Positions 6,001-60,300 of a stretch of 64,000 nucleotides of DNA are shown one piece after another; the stretch's first letter is position 1, and each line of letters starts with the position of its first letter. Under the pieces are notes generated by a model. The model was not told the origin of the DNA, did no database searches, and saw only the letters and a list, made by a program, of their open reading frames with translations. The stretch is from Phoronis australis. Taxonomy: Eukaryota; Animalia; Phoronida. Both the position numbers and the translations under genes were made by a program. The DNA is taken from the NCBI GenBank assembly GCA_002633005.1, contig NMRA01000201.1, positions 9,722-73,721 of the forward strand. Reading direction: 5' to 3'.

Positions 6001-9000
6001 ACTATAGATAGACTATCGTCCCAGTCTGCCTTTATTTATATTGAATCAATGAAGACTTTGTTAACGATGGTGACGCCTTTTTTACAAACTGGTCGCTAGT
6101 TTTCTAAAGTGGTCACCGGACATTCAGATTGGGAAAGCTGCCAAACTGGTTACTGCGACATGTTTAAAGCGGTCATGGAAGAAGGAGGAATGAAGATTTT
6201 AAGGACATTAACTTTGAGCAAAATGTTACTTGGCCCGATTTTTACCCACGTCGGTGCAAAACCGTACTAGTACATTTCAACAGATTTGCACCAAGCTTGG
6301 TCCAAGAACAAGGTTAGGACAGCTGTTTCCATAGGCAATTACATCGCCTCTTTAATTACTTCCAACTTGAACAAATACTCCCGTTATTAAACTTTCTATT
6401 CAAGCAGTCCTTCGTTAAATTCCCACCAGTGCAAACTGACCATTTTTACACAGTGCACGCCAGGGGATATGACATCATACCACCTGCCGTGTTGTTCACT
6501 GTCTTTACTGCCCAGCTAGAGACGGTGGTCAAAGTCTACAATTTGGGTTACAATAGTTATCACGCATGGTGAAAAAGTTAACGGTGATCAAACAGTGGAG
6601 TTGGAATTCTTCATGATAGTCATATTAATACATGTACACATGCTTCATCGAGGATGTCTATAAGACCAGAAAGGAATGCTGAATCTTGAAAGTAAGCACT
6701 TTTTGGAGATAATTTTAAGAAAAAATGTATTTTTGATGAGCTCAAACAATTTACTCTCAAGTGACTGTATGGGATTAATACAGAAACTGATGGGAAGGAA
6801 AAAAGCATGAAAATTTTGAGACATCCAGTTGAGAAAACAGATCAAGTTTGAGTCAAATATTGGAATAAAAACTTACAAAAATTAGCGACGTTGTGTCACA
6901 ACATCGTCGTCCTAGTTATGGGGACATTTATGATTCGGCTATTTTTAGCCACCTGTGGGCCACTGGACATGATTTCAATACTGATGATGACATGATTTCA
7001 ATACTGATGATGCCACTATCCTAGACTTTGAGGAAGACTGGTTCAGAAGGGGTGTAAAGGAAGCTCTCCATGAGCGCATTGAGTTCGTCTTTAAATAAAA
7101 GAGGCGGTTTAAGATTTGATTTGTCGCACGTATGGGATGGTGTTCTGACGTCAATGTCGCGCCGTCTGGTTAAAACGCCACCAATTGGCCAGAATAACGA
7201 TAACATCACAAGCCAAGCTGAAGTCCGTGACATGCGGACGCAACGTCGCTAATTTTTGTAAGTTTTTATTCCAGTATTAGACTCAAACTTGATCTGAAGG
7301 GAAGAAATGTAGCTCACGTTACCTACTGCTCTAGCCTTGGCGCAAAACAGTATACTAAGTATACAGCTTTGCGCTGGGTAAAAAAATACCAAATAAAATA
7401 TGACACAAAATTAATGTCAGTAAAAACTACACCCTTCCTTGAGTAAACTTAATTAACTACCGATGTTGGAAAAATTGGCGTTCTAACGTCATTCTGCAGT
7501 TAAAATTGTGTTATGATCTGTTGCGTCAGCATTCGGCACCATGAAATATTACGTCACCTATAAGCCAATTTCTTTTTTCGCTGATTCTTCAATAAACTGT
7601 TGTTCTTTCACAAGGTTGCATACACGTCACAACAAATTATTGGAACTGACTTCATTGATTATCAGGTTTTAGAATATACACGAAAATCAAATCAGCTCGG
7701 AGCAGCACAGGTTGTCAGCTTCGTTAACAGAGGTCGCTGAAGCCACACTGAAAAATGTTCGTCATCAGCTATCACAAACAAAATCTCGGTAAAACGAAGC
7801 ATGGCAAAAAGCACTTATCCATGGTTCGGTTGATTTGCTCCAAGTTTTATCTACACAGAATTTACTCTTTCGGAATATCCCCCCNNNNNNNNNNNNNNNN
7901 NNNNNNNNNNNNNNNNNNNNNNNNNNNNNNNNNNNNNNNNNNNNNNNNNNNNNNNNNCCGCCAAGACTTAAACCATTGTTATTATTCTTAAATTCTTAAC
8001 ATTTGAAGGCATTAACGCTGAAGTAGTAACGAAGAGTCTCATTGGTTGATTTCTTAAAAGATTTGCAAATATTATATGACTCCTCAAATGTTATTAGGTG
8101 AGCCATTAACCTTCAGTGGCAGGTAAGCTAGTCGAGTTAGATGGTTTTGTTCACAGGCACCTTTGATCAGCCCTCAACTATACACTAAATAAAGAGAAAG
8201 GTACACAACTGACATTCAATATGGCCGTCTGCCGGGCACTTCCGGAATAGCCCAAACCTGTCAAATCTGAAAGTAATTTGACTCAAACATTTTATTTGCT
8301 ACAGCAACACGTTCATTGCTTCCATTTGTTGTCATCGAAACCAATAAAAACAATACATAACTCAAGATTTTCCTACTTCAGTCGCCAACATTCACGGCAA
8401 AGCGAAGAGCACAAATAACTTCAAGTGCTTGGTCTTATGCGCATGCTCATAAGACCCCTCGCGACATCTTCAGAACGCTTACATCAACTAAAAACAGCAA
8501 CATTACGAACACAGTAAGCCAAGAGGCTCTTGACGGTAATTTGCGAATATGTCGTCCTACCTCGCATGAGGATGTCAAAAAAACATGGTTGCCTCTGGCC
8601 CTGTAAGTCGACTCTTACAAGTTCTGACGAACGGAAGATAAATTGGAAGGCCCCTTGAACGTTTGACCTATTTTTGCTGAACCCAATCAGCATTCTCATA
8701 GAGGAACATATAAATTATGTTGCTGTTTTCACAATGATGTAAGCATTCTGAAGATGTCGTGAGGGGTCTTACGAGCATGCGCATTAGATAAAAATTTTGA
8801 AGTTATTTGCGCTCTTCGCTTTGCCATGAATGTTGGCGATTGAAGTAGGAAAATCTTGAGGTATGTATTGTTTTTATTGGTTTCGATGTCAACAAATGGA
8901 AGCAATGAACGTGTTGCTGTAGCAGATAAAATGTTTGAGTCAAATTGCTTTCAGATTTGACATGTTTGGGCTATTCCGGAAGTGCCCGGCAGACAGCCAT

Positions 9001-39300: not shown

Positions 39301-42300
39301 TTTGGCCTGGTACTGTATGAAGTGCACTGAGCTGCGTATTTGCACTTACAGATAATTGGAATATTCGAGTAACTAGTGTTTTTGTTAGCCTGGTCTGTTC
39401 GACGTAGTTCTGCAGTGCCCATCTGCAAATCAATGGTCACATACCGTAAGTTTGGTGGTTGAAGCGTACCTTGGCTCAGTAAGTGAATGGACCGCTGCAC
39501 CTTTTCATTTCCAGGTGTATAGCGAACACTTTGCGCCATGTTTCGAGGCCAGTGAGACGATCACAGCACTTCATTTCCAGCAGTTCTTAGCCAAAGAGCA
39601 AAATGACCCCATAGCCAATGATCTTCAAGCAGTCAAGGACGTTATGAATAAGTTCCTCGATGACCCCTTTCGAAAGGCTGCTGGCTCTCACTTTACCCAC
39701 CAAGAGGTAATAACTGATACATGTCATCCAACGTAATTTTATGTTGAAGCAATTAGTAAAGATAAGTAAAGACTCGGCAAAGACTAAGGTAATTGGCAAC
39801 TTTCATCAAGTTCTTTGACATTTCATAAAATAACTTTTCAACTTTTCACTTTTAACCAATAAAAGTAAAGAATTCCTCAATACTTGAAAATTGTATTTCA
39901 GACCTTGAAAAGTTGCACAATCGGTTATATTCACGCGACCACCATTTTTTTAATTGTTTTTTGTTTTAACATGGATTGCTAAAAATCTCAACTGCATGCG
40001 ACGTTTTGTATGAACTATATTTATAATTATGCTAGGTATTGTTGCTCAGATTTTTTTATTTACCCTCAAACAACAAGATATCAGCCATCAAAGTCACTAT
40101 CTAAAAACCTGTTCATCAGAACAGAAATACAGTGCTTGAGAAAAGAAATATAGCGGGAATGCAAAGATTTGTGAGTTATCACTGAGAAAAATAACAAAAG
40201 TTTCTGGCAATGCCCACATGGTCCATGAGGGAGTAGATTGCCTGCCATCATTAAATGGTGGTGAAAACTGACACTGCTTTTTGTGAAGTACTTGGTGTAC
40301 ACATGACTCTGAAAAATGACTGGGCTTGCACAGTTTAGCTGTTTTACCATATTTTGGCTCCTAGTAATACATTTACCTCGTTTTAGCTCATGTATGCTGT
40401 TTTCCTTTATGTCGATAACCACAACCGTTAATTATGTACTATGTTATAAATTTCAGTTTATGTCGTTTATGTTTTCACCCCAAAACTCTGTGTGGGATCC
40501 TCAGTTCGATCAGGTGACTCAAGACATGAATCGACCTTTGACCCACTACTGGATTGCCTCATCACACAACACGTATGTGTTAGATTTATCTATGTGCGTA
40601 TGTGGTGTCTGTAAGACAGTCTGTAAGACAGTCTGTAAGACAGTCTGTAAGACAGTCTGTAAGACAGTCTGTAAGACAGTCTGTAAGACAGTCTGTAAGA
40701 CAGTCTGTAAGACAGTCCCTACTGAAGATTTTTACACGTCCACTGTCTGATACTTCTCTTGTCTGATTGGCAGAAACGTAGTGTAATAAGTTCCCATATA
40801 GTGTTATGTTGACCAACTGGCTCTAACACCAGATGTCGCTATTCACGAGCTGGCTAATCAATTCCTGTAGAACCCCTAAACTGTACCCACAAAGAGAGAA
40901 GACGATGTCGGTGTATCAAAGTGCGTGAGACCAAGCTAAACTAATATTAGATGGAAAAATCGGGGAGTCAGTGAGCATTTTGTACAATACAGACCCATCC
41001 TGTGGGAAAATCTGATCATGTCCACCGCGAGAGAGCAATTAAGTGATTTACAGCACTTCATAAATCTGTCCTTTACTATTAGTATTGTTTTTTGATTTTA
41101 TTTGGGCCCAAAAAGTCAAAATGATATCTTACTAAACATGGCTTCTCTTGTAACAGTACTTGGTGTATTGTTTGTCCCTCTATTGCCTCCTTCCTTGATA
41201 TCTCGACACTATACAAATGAAAATGGACCTATCCTGAAGGTGACATTAACATTTGTTTTCCTGTAGGTGTCAAAATAAGCCAAGCTCACTATTCGGTGTG
41301 TAATAGACACAGTTGTGACTAATTCTACAACTTTGAGTGTGTACTTTGTTCCGTAGGTATCTGATGGGTGACCAGTTTCAGAGCGAGTCATCTGCCGAGG
41401 CCTATGTCAGGGCACTACGAATGGGCTGTCGGTGTATCGAGCGTGAGTATTGGTCCATCTCTACGAGCCATGAATATGTGGGTGGCAAAGCTGAAGCGAG
41501 TTATTCGCAGCCATTAGATCAATACAAGTTATGGGACCCCAGAAAAATGCCCAAATTCATCTAACTTCGGAACATCTTATCTCAGAAATGGCTGATCACA
41601 TTCATATGAAACTTTCAGATACTGTCTCTCAAAATGTTGTTGAGATTTTTTTTAATATGCCACTTATGCATGAGGAGCTAACAAATAATTAAATACAAAG
41701 TTGCATAAAAAGGAAAATGAAATGATAAGTGTAGAAAACTGTAACAGTGTTTTTGAAATCTCATCTTGTCATTCAAAATAGATGTTATTGGTATCATAGT
41801 TTTGCTATGAATGTACTTTGTTTTTTGCTTAATTTCTAAAAAGACATGCTCACGTGACATGATTAATGTCAAAAATCATTTTCTACAAGCTTACTGTTTT
41901 CAGATAATGTATAATTTTGCGGAGTTAGCATCTATAGTTTTGTTGATATTTGGTAAATGCATACACTAGTCAATAATGTCCATTCGTAAATCCACTTTGA
42001 CTAAGCTGATGGGCAGTAGTTGTGGGGTGTGTTCTGTAAAGCAAGTTGTGAGATGAGCGGTATCGCGTAAGCTCACACCAAATAAAAGTTGCCATGTGTT
42101 TCACTTGTAAGCTTAAGATTTTTTTAATGTAACCAAAACGGCTGCCACTTGATCTAACCGTTTACTCATATCTATGATACACTGAATGACAGTCTGCTTG
42201 ACATATTACTACAGATTGTATGACATTTTGTGTACGTCTGCTGGCGGTCCTGCTAAGTATAATATCCCACAATCCTCTGTGTATATGACGTCTCTCGCTA

Positions 42301-48300: not shown

Positions 48301-51300
48301 AGCAGACAATCAATTTATTATTGACAGGTAACTGGTTCCGTACATATTGCTTTGTATTTATCAATCAAAAAGTAAATTGGTTGAACAGGGTTATCACCTG
48401 CATGCCTACAGCATCTACAGGTGATGTATTGACTAACAGAGGATGTACTCTTTTGTCAACTTTTAAGAGGCATCTTTTGCACAAATCAACAAAATTCAAT
48501 GAAGTTGGCAGATTGAATTTCACATCTGAAAAAGGTAATTGGCATACGTGACAATATGGTTGGGTTAAGAGTCACTATATGCTCATTTTACCTCTGAATT
48601 GCTTCTTTCACTAGTGACAATATGGTTTGGTTAAGAGTCGCTATATGCTCATTTTACCTCTGAATTGCTTCTTTCACTAGTGACAATATGGTTTGGTTAA
48701 GAGTCACTATATGCTCATTTTACCTCTGAATTGCTTCTTTCACTAGTGACAATATGGTTTGGTTGAGAGTCACTATATGCTCATTTTACCTCTGAATTGC
48801 TTCTTTCACTAGTGACAATATGGTTGGGTTAAGAGTCACTATATGCTCATTTTACCTCTCAATTGCTTCTTTCACTAGTGACAATATGGTTGGGTTAAGA
48901 GTCACTATATGCTCATTTTACCTCTCAATTGCTTCTTTCACTAGGTGCCAGTGGCTGGTCTTGTGCTACTCGGTCTCATGTAAACAAACAGGAAATTTGA
49001 CTTAGATATTGTTGATATCCTCATATTGTAGGAACTCAAATGAACGACATTAAATAATAAGTGTCTCCTGGATTTAACTTAGACTTTCTGAAATTAGAGA
49101 ATTATTGGTTTCTTTTTTACAATTTGAACTGTGTTGGAGAAATGTCTCATTTTGCATAATTTGTCTAATGATTCAGCAGCTCCTTGTCTGTCGCAAATGG
49201 TTCCTCTATGATGTTCTCATATATGCATATGCTAGAGAGAAGCTGCGAAAGCTGTGAAAACATACTCTCTGTGAGGGATGGTACCAGAAGTACCTGAATT
49301 TTACCAAAGGATGCGGAAGAGCTCTCCTTTAGCTTCAAACTCTGAAACAAAGGGCAAATTTATTTAGATAGTATTGAACAATAACTCTTCTCTCCATACA
49401 TCTAATGGTAGGAACCGTTTTGTTTATCTAATTGTGGTGCATGGCCATATGTTTAATTAAACAGTTGACTACTATATTTACTGAGAAGTTGCTTAAAGTG
49501 GAACACTTTTCCGAAACATAGCTTCATTCCCCATCCAAATACACACGATTTTGGGGGTGGCCCAGCTAAACTTAGAAGCTTTGACATGGTTCCACCCACT
49601 TATGCAGATTTTATCAAAAATCTTCTTAGTGTGTGATCTCACAATGTCAGGTCCACTGGAACTAACAAATAGTGTGGTGTGTTTATCAAATGTCTTTTTT
49701 GATGATAACAATCAAAAACCAGAAACATTGAAACTATGACTGTGTGGGATCCATAGGCTTATCAAATCCAGAAACTACAAACCATTATACCCAGGTTAGA
49801 AAGAAAGCATTCTTAAATATGTGTAAATTATGGGATGCAAACAAGTAATGTTTACCCATAATCCTGACCTTAACTAATAGATTTCTGTGAAAAATGTCTT
49901 GATTTAATGTATACTTCTCAGGTTTCATAAAAGGTACCTGGTTACAACTGAGGCAAAAATGATTACAAAATGCTCATTTTTTTCAGTTGTCAGGAGTTTC
50001 TAAGAATGGTGCGAATGTCTGTTGTAACTTTTCAAGATATTGCATTACATTAGCTTTAGTACTAACAGAACTTGAAAATTGTGAAGCTTTTTTGTGGCAT
50101 TAATAACACTTCGTAATAAAATGAGAAATTGAAATTTCTCTTGGTCTTCCACATTATGTCCTAAACGAATGCATATTTCTGTCCCACTAAGAGGTAAACA
50201 GACATACATTTAGTTCAGTCAGGTGACCATAGGGGTCGCCATTTCTTTGTGGGAGTTCTATGAGTGATAGTAGTTCTTATGTTTTGAAGGTGGCAGGGCA
50301 AAAACAACAATCACTGTCGTATCAAGTCGAAGCAGGACCGTGGTCAGATCAAGTACTACCTGATCAGCGACATGCCCTTCGACAGCCTCTACTCGCTTAT
50401 CACGCACTACCGCCAGTATCCCCTGCGGAGTCGTGACATGGAGGTTATCCTCAAGGAACCTGTGCCGCAGCCAGAGAGCCACCTTGGCAAACCGTGAGTA
50501 TAGCTAGATCTGGTCGGATTTTTGTTTTTTGTGGTCTGAGGTTCTTTGATGAGGGCTCTTGGAAAAGTTCAGACCTTTCTTGCCGAAAACAATCACTTTC
50601 TCACCCAGATGTCATGCACACGTGTATTTATTCATTGTACGAGGCTACTTTTTTGAAGCTATTAATGTGAGGTAATGCTGGTATCTTTCCTATTAAATAG
50701 ACATTGCGTAATTATTCAAAAATAATCACTTCATAAAAATAAATTCCAAAATTTTTGTTAACAACGTTGTTGAAAAACTTTCAACACTTTGCATTGTAGC
50801 TCATCCTTGCCAAACAAAATTTTCTGAACAATATTCATGACTAAGATTTTTTTGAAATCCTTTCACTTTCAGAAATGTGTTTGTGTCTGTTAATGTTTCA
50901 GCAAGTTATAAGACTTTGGTGATAAGCATTTGCCAAAATCTTGTACTTGCTTATATCAGAATTTGTGTCTTTGTGTATTTCTTAGCAAATCAGTCTGCTT
51001 TTCAGCAAGTGATGAGCCTTTGGTACCAAACGTTTACCAAAACCTTGGTTGACCAAATTTTTTTTGTTTCCGTCCTGATTTCAAAATACGTATTTTTTTC
51101 AGCTAGTTATAAGCCATTATTAAGCAAAGATTTGGTAAATCGTGTACATGTCAGTTGAAATTGTTCTTTGTCTCTCAACATGTCAAGATACGTCTGCATT
51201 TTAGCTGGTACAATGATGAGGTTGACCGAACAACGGCTGAAGACATGCTGAAGCGAATCCCATGTGACGGAGCATTCTTGCTCCGTCATACGGAGAGTGA

Positions 51301-54300
51301 CCGCCTCTCTTATGCAATATCGTTCAGGTGATGACGCATGTCACCGCCCTGAGTTTTTATCTCTACAAATTCTTTTGTATCTCTGCTTTGCATTTCCCTG
51401 TAGGGACCACAGACAAAACTCCACCACCTTTGCCCATTTATAGTCAAATGCATCAAGCCACAGACTGGTTATTTACCTTTCTATGTATGGAATGTAGGCA
51501 GAGCTTTGTCTGTCGATCCCTTCGTCAGTATAAACTTTCTTCTCTGAACTTTGCTTGAGATGACTTTAGTTGCACTTGTCTGTGACTGACTGTCAGAGAA
51601 CAAAGATTTATACTGTTAAATCTATACACTCGTCAGCCATTGTGCAAACCATGGTTCTTATGTTTTTGTTTTAGGTTATTTCCTGTTATGTCCGCGTTCT
51701 TGTGAAAGCATTTGATGACTGTGTATTTGGCTACAATTGGCAGAAGCCAGTGTTTTGTTCAACAATTTTTGCGAAAAATATAGTCACCCACTTTTCAGAA
51801 ATTTGGCTTTTGTCTTTAGAAATGAGCCACTTAAAAGTATTTTCAAATAAATTTGAACAATTGAATTGATGAATCACTTACTGCTATTGTCAAAAACAAA
51901 ATGTCAAACCTTTGTTTTGTGTTGTACTTCTGTTCCATGCAGTTGAGAATTTTTTTTAACGATGCACTAAAAATCCTGAGTTACTTTCTTTTTCTCAATC
52001 CTAAACTATCAATGAAGTATTATCAATAATCGTGGTGTGCACGGTGACCTCTGCTTGACCTCTGCTCTTGTCCTACTAACATATTGCGGACTTGCCTCCC
52101 CTGTGTGTTTAAATTAACAGCATGGTGTTTTGCATGGCAGATGGTATCACGAGAATCTGAGTCGGGAAGATGGAGAAGACATGCTCAGTAGGATACCGCG
52201 TAACGGTGCTTTTCTGATTCGTCGCCGGGTGGATGAGAGATATTCAAATGCCAAAGAGTATGCCATCTCGTTCAGGTAACAAAGAATACTTTTTTAAAGT
52301 TCTGCTAGAGTAATGGGACTTCATCGCAAAATGTCTTGTTTTTAAAAACTTATTGTCCATCAAATAGTGTGTCGCTTACAAAGTCTGGCATTTTGGCAGC
52401 AAAATGTGTCTTGACTATTTTATAAACTTCAGAGAACATCGTAGTAAAGCTTGTTCCAAAATCCCATGATGTGTCTGTAGAACATTCATAAAAACTGGTA
52501 AAAAATTTTGTTTAATACTAAACCATTCCAGAGTCATCTAATGATGTAAAATTTTGTTTAATACTAAACCATTCCAGAGTCATCTAATGATGTAAAATTT
52601 TGTTTAATACTAAACCATTCCAGAGTCATCTAATGATGTAAAATTTTATTTAATACTAAACCATTCCAGAGTCATCTAATGATGTAAAATTTTAACTGTG
52701 TAATATCTAGTAAATGCTGGCCTTAACAGTATTCATAGCACCCTGGCTTCTTTTTAAGAAATTGAACATTTTTGTGGCATGTTTTTTTAGCTTTTAAGCA
52801 TTATTTTTCTTTGAACATTTTTTGTGTTTGTTTTTTCCATGCTGTTGTGAATTATTTATTTCAATAATATTGCTATGGCAATTGAAATTTTACTCTATGC
52901 TACTTTCTTTTTTGCCATTCTTTTATGGAACTTCATCAGTTAAATGTCCAAAAAACACGTTCTTGGAATTATTTTTGGATGGGCTAGACTTCTTGAAGTT
53001 ATTAGCACTGACCACAACTATAAAACAACAAAATCCATTGTTTAATACAAATTATGTGATTTATTGAAATGGCCATGGCCCAAAGTATAACATGTACAAG
53101 ACAGAACATTGTCAGGTGTGTTACAAGCTGGATAATAAATTGTGACTCTTGAGAGCATGATGGACAAATTTTAGAAGTAGGATATCCGGAGTTCTCATGA
53201 GAGATTGAAATTTAGATGAAGTGGGAGAATGACAAAAACGATCACTTCAGTACTTAACCTGAAGGTCTTGGTACGCACTACAAACTAACACAAGGTGGTA
53301 TTCATCCTCTACAAATACTAGAACTTGTGTCAAATGAGCATGCCTTTTTAGCAAAATTTAGCATAAAAAGAATTTGAGGGTATATTGATAGCAAAGTGAC
53401 AGCATCAACGGCATGATCAGATTTTATTGGAAATGTTCAAGATGAGATCTCAAAAACACTGTTACAGTTCTCTAAAATATTACTTTGTTTTTGTTTTATA
53501 CAACTTTAAATTTTGGTGAACCATTCCTGAGATATGGTGTTCCAAAGTTAGCTAAGTTTGGAAATTTGTCTCTAAGGTCTTACATGAACTGAAGGGACTG
53601 GATGTTTAAAAACTAGATTCTGTGAGATGCTGTAGTTAGGCTTTGGGTGTAGCTATGACTGGCTGTGTTGTTTATTACAACTTTTTTTCAGCATGCTCTC
53701 CTTGCCAAAAGGCACCACAACTCTCATTTATCATCTTCAACTGATGTTCATGTTTCCAAAAATGCTTGAAATTACTATTAAGTCTTTGGAATGCACTAGT
53801 ACACTTTTGAAAGATGTTTTATCACTCAATTTTGCCATTCGTCAAGTTCCAGGATTATGAGATTTTGTGAACATGGAAAACTGCGATTAATATATTCTTT
53901 CCTTCATTTTCACCAGCTTGGAAGGTGGTGAATAGAAACTTTAACGTTTTATAAATTACTACAGCCTTGTATATTGATTGTTGTATTATCACATCATAGA
54001 AAGTGAACTTCAATATTATTCACTTGTCTGGCGTCCATTGTGTTACTGCACCACCATCTTCATTAAATTCTGTGTATTTGAAAATATTATGTTTCATGAG
54101 ATCACCGAAAAAATTTGATCTGGGTGTGATGCTGTGTTGAAATAGCAAAATTTGGAATGAGTTTCAACAAAATTATGTTTAAATAAAGTTTTTAACCTGA
54201 GACACAGAGTATGTTAAATGTATGTTTTTATATGTTATTGAAGTAGTAAGAGTCTCTTGGGTGATAAAATATTGTGTCCCTGTTGTCAACATTCATATGC

Positions 54301-57300
54301 ATGACCAGCACATCTCTACTTGAGGGGTACTCCTCATCCAGCCCCGATACCAAAATCTGCCCATGTAATGTCACCATTTGTTGAAACCCATTTCTGTGCT
54401 CTTCTAGGGCTGAAGGTAAGATTAAGCATTGCAAAATCAAACAGGAAGGTCGGCTCTTCACCATCGGCACAGCACAGTTTGAGAGCCTCATTGAGCTGGT
54501 GCAGTATTACGAGAAGAACCCCCTCTATAGGAAGATGAGGCTACGCTACCCTGTCAATGCCAAGGTGGTGCAGGACGTCGGACTGGTGAGCTTGTGCCAT
54601 CTGGGGGTTGAAAGATCAACTAAAGTGTTGGATGTTAATGATAAATGTTTTAGATTCAAAACGTTCCGTATGATTTAGCTCTGCAAAAACCTTCAAAATT
54701 AGTAATTTTAAAAATATCTGTCGATCCTTTCTGTTTTTTGTTATTTTGATTGACAAATATTTAACTTTGTTGTATTTATTTCTTCACGTCAGTAGCAAAG
54801 AGAGATAAGTCTTGCAATAATTTTTTAGATAAACAAATTCAACTTGCAGTTGACGAACTGAAAGAGCTTGACCAGAAAAAATTCAAACCCTAATCATGTT
54901 TTGGGTACAATTCTGAATTTATACTTGATTAGACTGGAGTCGCCACTTTTGCCACCACTGTGTTCAAAAGTTTTGATCGATTACGGTTATATGTATTTGA
55001 TTAAGATGGAGTTGACTTCTTACATTTAGCCGCCTGACGATGATGCCATATATTGTGGGCCCGACCTCTATATGAACCCTAATGATTTCACCACAAAGGT
55101 AAAAGGTCACATGTGGCATCCAGCTTCCAGTTTGATTGGCTGACTCATACTAACTGCTTGAGTGCGACAATGGCGTGACAAGGTCCCTTACATTGTCAAC
55201 GCCCCAGTTCTCACAGCCAACAGTTTTGTTCAATGACATCTCGGTTTGCATGTTCTGCGATATCCTGCAAAATACCGCATTGCCTGATTCTTGTAAATTG
55301 GTTACATACAACCTTTTGCAGGTGTTTTTTTCTTGACGGATACTCTATTGGGGACTATAATGCATGCATATGCAATAATTTGAAATAAGTCAAATCTTAA
55401 TATTCACCACCAATGGCTTTGTTACAATTGCTGCCATTTTCGTTCTTTATTCTCATCTTCCACTATTTCTGTTAATTATTTTATTATCATCACTCGTAAT
55501 TGAACTTGAAAAGATGAAAAATGTTTTAATCCTTGTTGAGTTTTTGCTCACTGGAGTGAATTCAATATGCCTTGCTTGACGACTGTGACTTCTAAGTGTT
55601 TCCCAATTCAATATGCCTTGCTTGACGACTGTGACTTCTAAGTGTTTCCCAATTCAATATGCCTTGCTTGACGACTGTGACTTCTAAGTGTTTCCCAATT
55701 CTCTTGCTGTTGTCATATTTTGAACCAGCCTTGTCAGCATATTGTCAATCCAGTTGATGTCTTTATTGTTCAATTACCTGCCAAAGATTAACTGTGCACG
55801 TGATATCGCAGAATGTGACTCATAGCTAGTGCATGAATTGAGTGCTTTTTGCTTTGTTTTGCCTAAACTAACCGCACACTGTTCTCCCTCCCTCCAGGAC
55901 TCGGATGCCGGCGCCATCTCTGGGGATGATGTCTACACTGATCCCAACGAGTACATCTCCCAGGTAGTTTAGACCTCAGTTGACCTATTTACGGATGGTG
56001 TGAGACATCCTACAAACAAAGAATTGTGGGATAGTGGTCATCCAAAGTAGCACTGCTAGTAAATGTAGAAATAAATGTTCTCTAGAGATCACATGAGTTT
56101 AGAAGCATTTTAAGCTGCCAGAAATCTAGTATACCTCAGAAACTATGGTATTTTTTCACTTGTTTACCACGCAATATGTCCGACAATTAAAATTCTGTTT
56201 TGTCAAATTTATTCGCAAACATAAAGAATTTTGTTTATTACTAACATGGTGTTTGTTGTGTAGATGTTATAAAACAACAATTGGCAAAGTTTCCATTATT
56301 TGTAGCAAAGTGAAAATGGTAATTTTGTGCAAAATAATTGGAGAATTACCACGGTAAACGTGTAGCCATCTATGCCATATCAACTGCCAGCTTACCAAGC
56401 AGACAACCGCCGTCATGGCATTTCCTTTATTCTGGATAGGATGACCCATATCCTACAAGTCTGTGCTCTACAATGCACACATATTGGTTTTCGTTCTTTG
56501 TGAAAGAGATAAGTCAAACTTCACTCTGATACATGCCCGTAGCTATTGACAAGGTTTCATAGAGTGGGTTCAACAAAGCAAGTTTTCTGAATGATGAATT
56601 TACACAAGCTTGCAACTCCAGATGTCGCTAGTGTTTTGTGAGAAACCCATGAGAATAATGGTGCACTCTTGCAAAATGGCCACCGATGAAATTGATTGAA
56701 TGGCTGTGCTGGAATCTTGCGTTGTGGGAGAATACTCTGAATGCTTCCATTACATAAACCAAGGCTTTTTTCGTTATTGTCTCATGAGTAGCATTGTCGA
56801 ATGCACCCATTTTAAAAAAAAATGTTCTTATTAATACTAGGAAAGTTAAACTTGTTAAACTTCGCAGGATATGATTTTCCTTCATTCCAAATTGTCTACA
56901 GGAAAGGACAGTGAAACTGTTTTATTTTGTAAAAGTTTGTTCGTGCCTTTCTGGGCTTAATGATCAACTTTTTACATTTAAGTTTATTTTGTATTAAGGT
57001 AATCACTAATGGTAACTTACATGTTTAAAAGTTGCGTGAAAACTTTACCAACAATTGAATTCCTAGCTGTAAAGTCTCTTTTTGGACATTAACCCATCCA
57101 CCACTGTTAGTTTATGCTGTTTTGCCAGTTTTTTATGAGATCCGTTTCTCTTGCATACTGATACATTTTGGCATGTTTTGTGTAAAACTGATGTCAGCTG
57201 GTTCTTATTGTAATCATTCTACTTTTGATTTGCATTTTACAGCAATTCTTCACTTATTCATCATGGCTGATAAATGAATTTCGATTTTGTCAAATTTGCT

Positions 57301-60300
57301 TACAAAAATATATCCATGGCTTGTACTGTCATGTCATAAAACAACATGTGGCGAAGTTTCCCGTATTTGCAACAAGGTAACCAGCCTTTAAAAAATGGAA
57401 AAACAACAGTTTTGGTAATTAGTTTTGTGTGCAATAAATGAAGAATTACCGTGCTCCTCAGTCAGCATGAGCATGTGTCTATCTGATCACTGACCTTGAC
57501 CTTGCCAATGTTTATCACTTCAATCTAGTACTGCATCTTGACAGATTTTAACGCAATCATCTAATGTGTAAGCGAACGTTATTACAATCTGGATTTCACT
57601 TACAGAGCTGTCTCCTTCATACTCCGTACATAACATGCATAGTGCTCATCGGAGGCTGAGTGTACTTGGGCACAGTTTTGGTGGATTATAAAAATAAAAG
57701 TACAGAAAATGAAGATCATTAGTTTCATTTCTATACTATTTTCTGGTATTGACGCAAGATTAGCCTACTTTTTGAAGTATACCCTGTGCATTGTTCTGTG
57801 CTATTGTTGTAATTTGCGGATGGTTTTTGCTGTCCTCAAAAAATTTTGGATTCACTGGACAGTAGTGTTTGGAAGGTAAATACTGAATGGATGATTATAA
57901 ATAGGTGTACTCGACTTCAAAAAATATTTTTCAAACCTTTTCTTAACTGGAGAATACTCTAAATGATTTCTGTTTGTTATGTATCGTCCAAGTGGTTTCC
58001 ATCCATACCGGAACATTCATGGTATCGGCATGAAAACAGTTGCCAGAAAGTCATCAGTTTTGGCACGGTTGGTCAACTATCCCGAAATTTGGCTGCTGCG
58101 TATAAGTTGCTGGTGGTACCTCAATACCATTTGAAAGTAGAAACCAAGTGAAGTGCTTTGGGGTGGAATTTTTTATGCAAAGTCGGAAGGTTAAATGTCA
58201 TTGGTTCAGTTTACATTGGCTGCAAATCTGTCTGTAAAAATATTGAATTGATGCGGTTTCAACCTTATCCTTTGTACCACGAGACAAATTTGAAAAAGCT
58301 ACAAAAATTCAAATCTAGTGGGCCTAAGAGAAGATAACGCCTCTCGTGACCTGGTTGTTACAGATTCGTGTGAAGGCTCTCTATGATTATCAAGCACAGT
58401 TAGAAGACGAGTTGTCATTCTGTAAGCATGCAATCATCACAAATGTCAACAAGCAAGACAGTGGATGGTAAGCATGTTTGGATACTTATCGTTGTGTCAC
58501 TTGTTTATAGGTTGACTGTAATCCCCTTGTAAAATGCAATCAACTATTAGCTGTGACACTGTCTTGGCACTGATAGACTTTTTTAAGTAATTAATCTGAT
58601 GATGAATGCAGCTCAGAGGAATGTATTGCACACTGCACTGAACATTAACTGTGAGCATTTGAAAATTTTTGGGAAAAGACGCAACTTATATATGGCATAC
58701 TCTTGCTCTTGGGGGTAACTAACTCAGTAGTCTGTAATATGCATCATCGTCTTCTTGACAAGAAGACAATTTGCAGCAGTACGAGAAAACAATAGAGCTG
58801 AAAAAAAACAAAACATTTTTCTAGCTTGGCACGCAGCTTGTTGTATTTTTCCTGTGGTTTCACTGTTCTGCTAGCTGTACTGTGAGTATCATGATAATAG
58901 GTCACACGGATAAATGGAAGTAATCTTATAGTCATGTATGGCCCTTGAGAAAGGTCACAATCTGGGACATCATAACTCAGAAACAGCTGATCAGATTCAT
59001 ATGAAACTCAGACACCATGCTTTGTGCATTGTTCTCCAAAACGCTTGTAGAAATTGTTCTTAAAATGTTTCACTTTGCTTGAGGGGCTTTTATAAATAGG
59101 ACTTTAATCATTTTCATGAAAAAGTTAATTTACATAAATTATACAAAAACTACATGATAATTTAGATAAGTGTACCAGCGTTTTGAGATTTTATATTGAA
59201 CATCAAACAAAATTTACCCAAGGCATGTTCTGGATACCATTGCCTTCTTATGAATGTACCTTAATTCGTTTTCGCTAAACATTAATAAAAACACATGGTC
59301 ACATGTCACAGTGAATGTCAGATTGGTATTAAGTCAAAAATCAAATTCTACAGGATTTTGATTTTTAGAAAAGACATACTTTTGCTGGGCTAAAAGCTAT
59401 AGTTTGAAAGGTAGTTGGCTTAACACACAGACTTATCAGTAAAGTCCTTCCTTAAATCACAAGGCTTATGGGAAAGTTGATGCCATTTACCTGTAATTAT
59501 GCATACCTGGTAATTACAGGTGGAGGGGTGACTACGGAGGTACTAAACAGGGCTGGTTCCCGTCGAACTACGTACAGGAAATAGAAGTACAGGAAGAGAC
59601 CGAGGACTCAACGCCATTAGGCACACTGCAGAAGGGCTCCATAGATGTCGTTGGTTGTATCGTTGGTAGGTTTTACTGCTCTGAAAATATATGGTTTTTG
59701 TAGACTTTTGTCTAGTATTATTATGTAATTATGTTTGATATTGATTTTCTTCTGTAGATTTGATTGAGTGTTGCTGTAGATTTAAGAATCTAAAAACAAT
59801 AGCTGCATTCCCGTGTATTTCAGATTCCCAGAAATTTTGCGAGAATCTTTTACAGGAATTATTTACACTAATATTTTGTGTCGGCATGTGATTAAGAATC
59901 CCTTTTCAAACCTCCCTGAGACTGACAGTTTTGTGTATGTTAATTGACTCAGAATGATCCTAATCCTAAACCTATTGATAAAACCACTGGCCAAATATAA
60001 TTCTTTGATTGTGCAGATGGTAGTATTCACTGCCACTGGCTTCATCAATTCCAATTTTGAATTTTGCTTGACTTCCTTAGGGCAGCGTTGTATATTTAGC
60101 TGTGTGCACTGAGAGATTTGCCTTAAATCTTCCATAATTCCTTCACTGCAGAGCCTGTGTGTGGCGAGAGGATGAACCAGGAATACGTTTTCCGCATCAT
60201 CGCTAACAATGGTGAGAAGTTAGAGATTGCGGCGCGGACACTCGAGGACATGAACGACTGGATTAGTACACTGAGGGAGTGCACTATACTGGCTGAGAAA

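Follow-up and report, generated by a model that had tools for sequence, protein, structure and literature searches.

A duplicated cSH2 exon in a PLC-gamma gene

The sequence analysed here, called the window, is a stretch of 64,000 nucleotides (nt) of Phoronis australis DNA. It contains most of a PLC-gamma gene on the + strand. Matches to this gene in tblastn searches extend from 12192 to 62616, with inexact exon ends, and its 3′ part lies beyond the window. The domains encoded within the window are PH, EF, X, a split PH, nSH2, cSH2, SH3 and the start of Y. The first half of the cSH2 domain is encoded twice, by exons 18a and 18b, which both lie between the constitutive exons 17 and 19. Exon 17 (50290..50493, + strand) encodes the C-terminal half of nSH2 and the nSH2-cSH2 junction and provides the shared donor. 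It was found by tblastn with annelid and brachiopod PLC-gamma; its 3′ end is set by an RNA joint from 50493 to 52141, and its 5′ end by the tblastn match and ag/gt borders. Exon 19 (54408..54585, + strand) encodes the C-terminal half of cSH2 with the EF and BG loops and provides the shared acceptor.

Exon 18a spans 51205..51327 on the + strand (123 nt, 41 amino acids, phase 2-2) and is bordered by ttttag and TTCAG-gtgatg. It encodes the cSH2 segment from alphaA through betaB and the BC loop to betaC, with Thr at betaB7. Exon 18b (52141..52275, + strand, 135 nt, 45 amino acids, phase 2-2) is bordered by tggcag and TTCAG-gtaaca and encodes the corresponding segment in a second form, termed the B type below, with Arg at betaB7. 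Each length is divisible by three, and an intron of 813 nt separates the two exons. In searches against the PDB, the best match of 18a (E 9e-9) was to residues 668-706 of a full-length PLC-gamma1 chain, the N-terminal half of cSH2, and 18b matched the same half of a PLC-gamma cSH2 (best E 1.4e-8). The identity as cSH2 agrees with the position as the second SH2 domain of the gamma-specific array and with the presence of the alphaA2 and betaB5 arginines. Residues were numbered by alignment to dolphin PLCG1, with W668 as column 1. Both exons carry the equivalents of R675 and R694. At positions 687 and 696, 18a has Cys and Thr, whereas 18b has Arg at both, and the BC loop of 18b is four residues longer than that of 18a.

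The two exons are strongly diverged. They are identical at 62 of 108 anchored nucleotide positions and in 21 of 37 protein columns. The same residue is specified by 20 of the 36 anchored codon pairs, with a synonymous difference in 12 of the 18 degenerate ones, and synonymous sites are near saturation. The 300-nt intron flanks of the two exons align no better than shuffled sequence (scores reached by 48 and 49 of 200 shuffles). Judged by these comparisons, 18a and 18b are an old duplication that is maintained by protein-level selection, and the presence of two copies between exons 17 and 19 is not due to chance. An earlier reading of the window from its letters only (the sequence-only reading) had arrived at the same coordinates, lengths, phases and translations, the same residues at the four numbered positions, the longer loop of 18b and an old duplication under selection; all of these held up. 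The pair also shows the shared frame and phase and the similar length and sequence by which Hatje et al. (2017, PMC5740500) recognise neighbouring exons of a mutually exclusive cluster.

The use of both exons was assessed in three raw-read RNA runs (X1-X3), which were chosen by species label and of which about 18-19% each was read. Joints were listed only if at least three reads supported them in a run. The joint from 17 to 18b was covered by 5, 6 and 2 reads (13 in total over the three runs) and the joint from 18b to 19 by 8, 8 and 3 reads (19 in total). The former skips 18a and is thus the bridging to the downstream member that Hatje et al. (2017) take as a criterion. At this threshold and depth, no joint was listed for 17 to 18a, 18a to 19, 18a to 18b or 17 to 19. 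Of the junctions considered in the sequence-only reading, 17-18b and 18b-19 were therefore found and 18a-18b was unlisted, whereas 17-18a and 18a-19 stayed below three reads.

A narrow alignment on 18a recovered 11 reads. Eight of these, from about four fragments, are clipped exactly at the exon ends, and the other three, all from X1, are unspliced. In both X2 and X3, read depth is 0 through 51204 and 2 from 51205 onward, the position of the 18a acceptor. In X1 and X2, two reads each stop at 51328, one base beyond the 18a donor, and the depth then drops to 0. The extra base is a G, which is the first base of exon 19, while 18b begins with A. Because of this G, the four reads leaving 18a fit exon 19 and not 18b, and a retained intron would have extended the match. 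Spliced reads on 18a occur in all three raw-read runs and make up about a fifth of the boundary reads (8 versus 32, counted by two different methods). In these runs, 18b is the major form and 18a the minor form. Exon 18a is spliced, and its partners appear to be exons 17 and 19.

A further RNA run, made of contigs (X4), covered repeats only and none of the exons. Short intronic tandem repeats lie at 52500-52700, at 55560-55700 and at about 40600-40740, with units of about 46-51 nt and one 12-nt unit, and reads loop back on the array at 55560. Dispersed repeat fragments occur in the introns at 52900-53600 and 58900-59400, where reads of both strands show many differences and loose ends. An assembly gap of 73 N lies upstream of the gene, at 7885-7957.

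Two types of cSH2 segment and their age

A quick tree of the constitutive exons (820 columns, 36 rows) placed the gene in Lophotrochozoa with a support of 99 in the SH-like approximate likelihood-ratio test (SH-aLRT). Its nearest relative in this tree is Lingula (support 91), and it falls outside Mollusca (molluscs 100). Homolog searches and protein-cluster look-ups revealed two types of cSH2 segment among lophotrochozoans. Annotations show type A, mostly 41 amino acids long with Ser, Thr or Asn at betaB7, in Lingula and Chaetopterus, in gastropods and octopus and in most bivalves. Type B has 43-50 amino acids and a BC loop that is longer and basic; the annotated proteins of Owenia, Paralvinella and Tubulanus carry it, as do many exon-sized open reading frames. 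Exon 18a is identical to Lingula and Chaetopterus in 27 of 37 columns, and 18b is identical to Owenia and Tubulanus in 27 of 37. Among 27 multi-member clusters looked up, one contained both types, that of the chiton Liolophura. Its PLC-gamma isoforms in RefSeq (XP_064611127-135) have type B in five of eight cases (isoforms X1-X5) and type A in three (X6-X8).

Trees of the segment itself were built on a loop-free alignment of 37 columns, with 48 rows (bootstrap not settled, Mytilus row missing) or a reduced set of 30 rows. Twelve B-type rows form a group in the 48-row tree (91/94). A clade of 18a and 18b as each other's closest relatives is rejected (approximately unbiased test, p-AU 0.022). 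Since rows were assigned to A or B by loop and betaB7, these two features are circular, and positions 683 and 688 serve as independent ones. Lys occupies position 683 in 18 of the 22 A rows, compared with Ser or Cys in 10 of the 11 B rows; at position 688, all 22 A rows have Asp, and 6 of the 11 B rows have Asn. Both positions largely sort with the groups. Ten of the 11 B rows carry Arg at betaB7; in the chiton B exon, Ser takes its place and two Arg follow. A single shared duplication early in Lophotrochozoa, after which both copies survived in this gene and in chitons and one copy in other lineages, is the simplest reading of these data and the one we consider probable. Because the chiton isoforms are either/or and the sister grouping of 18a and 18b is rejected, the pair is likely Cambrian-old.

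Several observations weigh against a single shared duplication. Support for the B group falls to 75/92 in the reduced set. A clade of the two chiton copies is not rejected (p-AU 0.14). When columns 695-696 are dropped, the B type needs two changes, and a single change is found in 35% of bootstraps. The chiton B exon has Ser at betaB7, so a switch to Arg is not the conserved difference. A second exon copy is absent from five spiralian-like metagenome loci that span exons 17-19 (four of B type, one of A type), and in one look-up nine of ten clusters had one type only, so that most lineages manage with a single type. Long basic loops also occur in single exons of cnidarians, and two A-group rows are long-looped as well; B features can therefore arise separately.

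Part of this evidence would fit independent duplications here and in chitons, with the B features (a basic, longer BC loop and Ser or Cys at 683) being convergent. Besides the unrejected chiton clade, which was tested on only 37 columns, the weaker B grouping without columns 695-696 and the cnidarian loops, repeated gains and losses of exons are recorded for other clusters (PMC5740500). On the other hand, an 18a+18b clade is rejected, the annelid, nemertean and chiton B rows share several non-loop residues with it, and a duplication of the linker, described below, is common to those animals too. We therefore regard independent duplications as unlikely.

Outside the lophotrochozoans, no alternative cSH2 segments were found in seven deuterostome, horseshoe-crab and anemone clusters, and no second copy was present in the introns of one cnidarian-like locus spanning exons 17-19 (32 loci were fetched in all). 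Cnidarian-like cSH2 exons have very long BC loops (segments of 55-60 amino acids) with Lys at betaB7 and are single-copy where checked. In some echinoderms and neogastropods, PLC-gamma is present as two paralogues; those of a sea cucumber differ by Arg versus Ser at the R696 site, resembling the split that is made by splicing in 18a and 18b. A PLC-gamma-like protein of 578 amino acids (P0311) carries one nSH2-like and two whole cSH2-like domains.

A second exon pair and the choice between copies

A second alternative pair, which the sequence-only reading had missed, encodes the cSH2-SH3 linker. Exon 20a (55030..55098, + strand, phase 0-0, 23 amino acids) carries tyrosines of the Tyr775 and Tyr783 types. 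Exon 20b (55898..55963, + strand, phase 0-0, 22 amino acids) keeps the Tyr783-type residue, has Ser in place of the Tyr775-type one and carries an additional Tyr five residues further on; in both exons the equivalence to Tyr775 and Tyr783 was assigned by alignment. The two copies share the acceptor of exon 21 (58364..58467, + strand), which encodes the start of SH3 and was located by RNA joints and tblastn. Reads join 19 to 20a (3, 2 and 1 reads), 20a to 21 (5, 5 and 3) and 20b to 21 (9, 2 and 3); joints from 19 to 20b and from 20a to 20b were not listed at the three-read threshold in the three runs. The phosphotyrosine pocket and its intramolecular ligand are thus both alternatively spliced. 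In the intron between 20a and 20b, a perfect 12-nt inverted repeat (55247-55264 and 55802-55835) has TGCATG beside each arm and could form an RNA bridge. The 20a donor is followed after 50 nt by a TACTAAC, at 55148.

Duplicated linker segments are also annotated in chiton, octopus, gastropods and bivalves, with isoforms that contain either, both or neither (up to three segments, in Mercenaria), whereas the deuterostome, horseshoe-crab and anemone clusters checked have a single one. Orthology of 20b to the second linker exon of molluscs is unsupported (scores of 24-42 against 20b). A strict coupling of the choices at 18 and 20 is unsupported. In the chiton models, A segments occur with the 20a-type linker only (three of three), but B segments occur with either linker (three and two), these being short-read models and not phased evidence; one metagenome locus with the B type only (L001) carries a 20a-type linker.

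Inclusion of one exon 18 at a time had been put forward in the sequence-only reading. It fits the unlisted 18a-18b joint and the either/or isoforms of the chiton. What weighs against strictness is the shallow depth: 18a is seen on about four fragments, no joint of 18a reaches three reads, and a rare joint of 18a to 18b would escape. At this depth, strict mutual exclusion is likely. The alternative is that 18a and 18b are two cassette exons that are jointly included or skipped at a real rate, as in the mollusc linker pair. Both exons preserve the frame, so decay would not remove such products, and RefSeq models of bivalves, gastropods and octopus do contain both linker copies or neither, while RNA depth is low here. 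Yet neither an 18a-18b nor a 17-19 joint was listed, the four reads leaving 18a fit the first base of exon 19, and both segments occur together in none of the eight chiton isoforms (automatic RefSeq models) and in none of the 370 proteins fetched. The products would have 1.5 or 0.5 SH2 domains. Cassette behaviour is therefore quite improbable.

How exclusion would be achieved was examined by comparison with known routes. Frameshift-induced decay was rejected, as 123 and 135 nt both keep the frame. Steric hindrance was rejected as well: the best branch-point match, a TACTAAC at 52074..52080 (+ strand) that is a candidate branch point for 18b, lies about 750 nt from the 18a donor, compared with a criterion of less than about 50 nt. 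Five duplex scans for pairing of docking and selector sequences gave none beyond the range of 20 shuffles, and the list of inverted repeats showed no docking pattern. With exon lengths that are multiples of three and a distant candidate branch point, neither decay nor steric hindrance enforces exclusion. It follows that a splicing regulator, together with the unfoldability of a 1.5-domain double-inclusion product, would have to enforce it.

Candidate sites for such a regulator are GCATG motifs. One at 51336..51340 (+ strand), 9 nt downstream of the 18a donor, is a putative RBFOX-type enhancer. A GCATG and a TGCATG at 52120..52136 (+ strand) precede 18b by 21 and 9 nt; they fall within its weak 3′ splice site and form a putative RBFOX-type silencer. 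Three TGCATG lie between 20a and 20b. Around the four alternative exons, GCATG occurs 4 times per 800 nt, compared with 1 per 4000 nt at the cores of 20 constitutive exons (p 0.003-0.009, post hoc, as the motif was chosen after seeing the sequence). RBFOX binding downstream of an exon usually enhances its inclusion, and upstream binding is associated with repression (PMC11874969); the same source cautions that GCAUG occurs frequently and that repression follows this rule only loosely. The placement downstream of 18a and upstream of 18b agrees with this pattern in position only. It is possible, though doubtful, that an RBFOX-type protein makes the choice, with GCAUG sites located between the two exons of either pair acting in favour of 18a and 20a.

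The alternative pockets and their possible role

In human PLC-gamma1, pY783 contacts R675, R694 and R696 (PMC3532599). R687W activates the enzyme, is associated with cancer and corresponds to R665W in PLCG2 (PMC7004563), and residue 687 faces the C-terminal linker (PMC6035297). Exon 18 covers alphaA2, betaB5, betaB7 and the BC loop, which correspond to the pY783 contacts given in PMC3532599. The sequence-only reading had rightly named R687 as a known gain-of-function site, and it had placed the Cys687 and Thr696 of 18a in this context. A census of 115 distinct non-vertebrate cSH2 segments, weighted to arthropods and molluscs, gives a different baseline. R675 and R694 hardly vary, being conserved in 112 and 115 segments. 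Site 687 has 15 residue types, with Tyr in 31, Ser in 20, Arg in 12 and Cys in 1 segment, and site 696 has Ser in 95, Arg in 11 and Thr in 1. Since invertebrates mostly have a residue other than Arg at 687 and mostly have Ser at 696, 18a is an ordinary invertebrate cSH2 type, and 18b, with its basic and longer BC loop, the unusual one. By this comparison, the vertebrate Arg687 network is not the invertebrate baseline, and 18a bears no mark of hyperactivity or poor binding. The conserved difference between the types lies on the side of 18b, in its longer and more basic phosphate-binding loop.

The census also bears on the converse proposal that 18b is normal and 18a odd, with Cys687 raising its activity and Thr696 weakening its hold on the phosphate. 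The activation of human PLC-gamma1 by R687W (PMC7004563, PMC6035297) and the contact of R696 with pY783 (PMC3532599) would fit this, as would the rather long terminal branch of 18a (0.37) and its status as the minor form. With a residue other than Arg at 687 in 103 of 115 segments and Ser at 696 in 95 of 115, and with Ser at betaB7 being the usual hydrogen-bond donor to the phosphate, which 88% of human SH2 domains have (PMC12878756), we consider this proposal very unlikely, and a gain-of-function or phosphate-poor 18a is not supported by the comparison. That 18a is a decaying relic included by splicing noise is highly improbable: its share of about 20% of boundary reads on about four fragments and the single-copy loci of other lineages would allow it, but 18a has an open frame, intact splice sites and all core SH2 residues despite near-saturated synonymous sites, its spliced reads occur in all three raw-read runs, and the A type is annotated in Lingula, Chaetopterus and most molluscs.

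An AlphaFold model of the chiton B-type tandem SH2 shows two complete SH2 folds with a mean predicted local distance difference test (pLDDT) score of 88.9 and a score of 65 in the BC loop block. Its best structural matches are PLC-gamma tandem SH2 structures, with a domain orientation that differs from the solved ones (template modelling score about 0.46). As a stand-in for the isoforms of the window, the model suggests that the fold is retained and says nothing on affinity.

Taken together, 18a and 18b are intact copies of a pocket exon, both spliced, likely singly, and probably derived from an early lophotrochozoan duplication, with isoforms predicted to differ in how firmly they hold the enzyme's own pY783 linker. 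In the known switch, binding of pY783 to cSH2 displaces cSH2 from the C2 domain and releases the autoinhibited core (PMC7004563). The EF and BG loops that hold C2 are encoded by the constitutive exon 19, and both isoforms would therefore stay autoinhibited. Exon 18 provides the phosphate pocket and the linker-facing surface, and the most plausible effect of exon choice would be on the affinity for the phosphotyrosine linker or the response to kinases. With odds slightly under even, such differences in pY783 affinity or kinase response would be combined with the two linkers, the basic long-loop pocket of 18b being tighter or more selective. More speculative, and on balance rather unlikely, is an ancient two-part splicing switch in the activation latch of lophotrochozoan PLC-gamma. 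Here a single RBFOX-type regulator would select pocket and ligand together, and the resulting lock-and-key pairs would be tissue-specific and differ in thresholds or kinase inputs. If this were true, lineages that lost one copy would have fixed either type, giving the scattered Ser and Arg at the R696 site.

The pair probably belongs to a well-known kind of exon arrangement, that of tandem-duplicated mutually exclusive exons, and represents no novel type of system; the chiton isoforms are already present in RefSeq. Like the clusters of Hatje et al. (2017, PMC5740500), 18a and 18b are adjacent, similar in length and sequence, equal in phase and confined to one structural region, with a joint from 17 to 18b that bridges the other member; unlike in the mechanisms described there, the frame-preserving lengths and the 813-nt intron make frameshift and steric routes inapplicable. 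The main text of that paper mentions neither PLCG nor SH2. The chiton Liolophura is another close case, with either/or A/B cSH2 segments and either/or linker segments by automatic annotation; the loop of its B segment counts 11 residues, and betaB7 is Ser there, compared with Arg in 18b. No paper describing such a PLC-gamma exon pair or the chiton isoforms was found, in a search that was thin on subscription journals and excluded supplements. The cSH2-pY783 switch of vertebrate PLC-gamma1 and PLC-gamma2 (PMC3532599, PMC7004563, PMC6035297) shares the domain, the R675 and R694 equivalents and the linker tyrosine. The vertebrate segments fetched have one form of 40 amino acids with Arg696, whereas in the gene analysed here splicing yields two versions of the pocket half and two of the linker. 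The alternative exons of Fyn are mutually exclusive. Fyn is the nearest signalling analogue, as splicing to FynB or FynT (PMC2119231) swaps a segment at the SH2 domain of an enzyme in tyrosine-kinase pathways and gives tissue-biased isoforms with different output. The Fyn swap affects the end of SH2 and the start of the kinase domain, whereas that of 18a and 18b affects the phosphate pocket itself.

The contact of cSH2 with pY783 triggers the activation of PLC-gamma, and mutations that cause human disease cluster there. In gene models of PLC-gamma from annelids, molluscs and nemerteans, the exon copies displayed at the cSH2 site may not be orthologous. The role of the second linker tyrosine is an open question (PMC7004563). 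Two pockets and two ligands that have been retained for about half a billion years would provide natural variants within one protein background, and these bear on what betaB7, the BC loop and the spacing of Tyr775 and Tyr783 contribute to the activation threshold.

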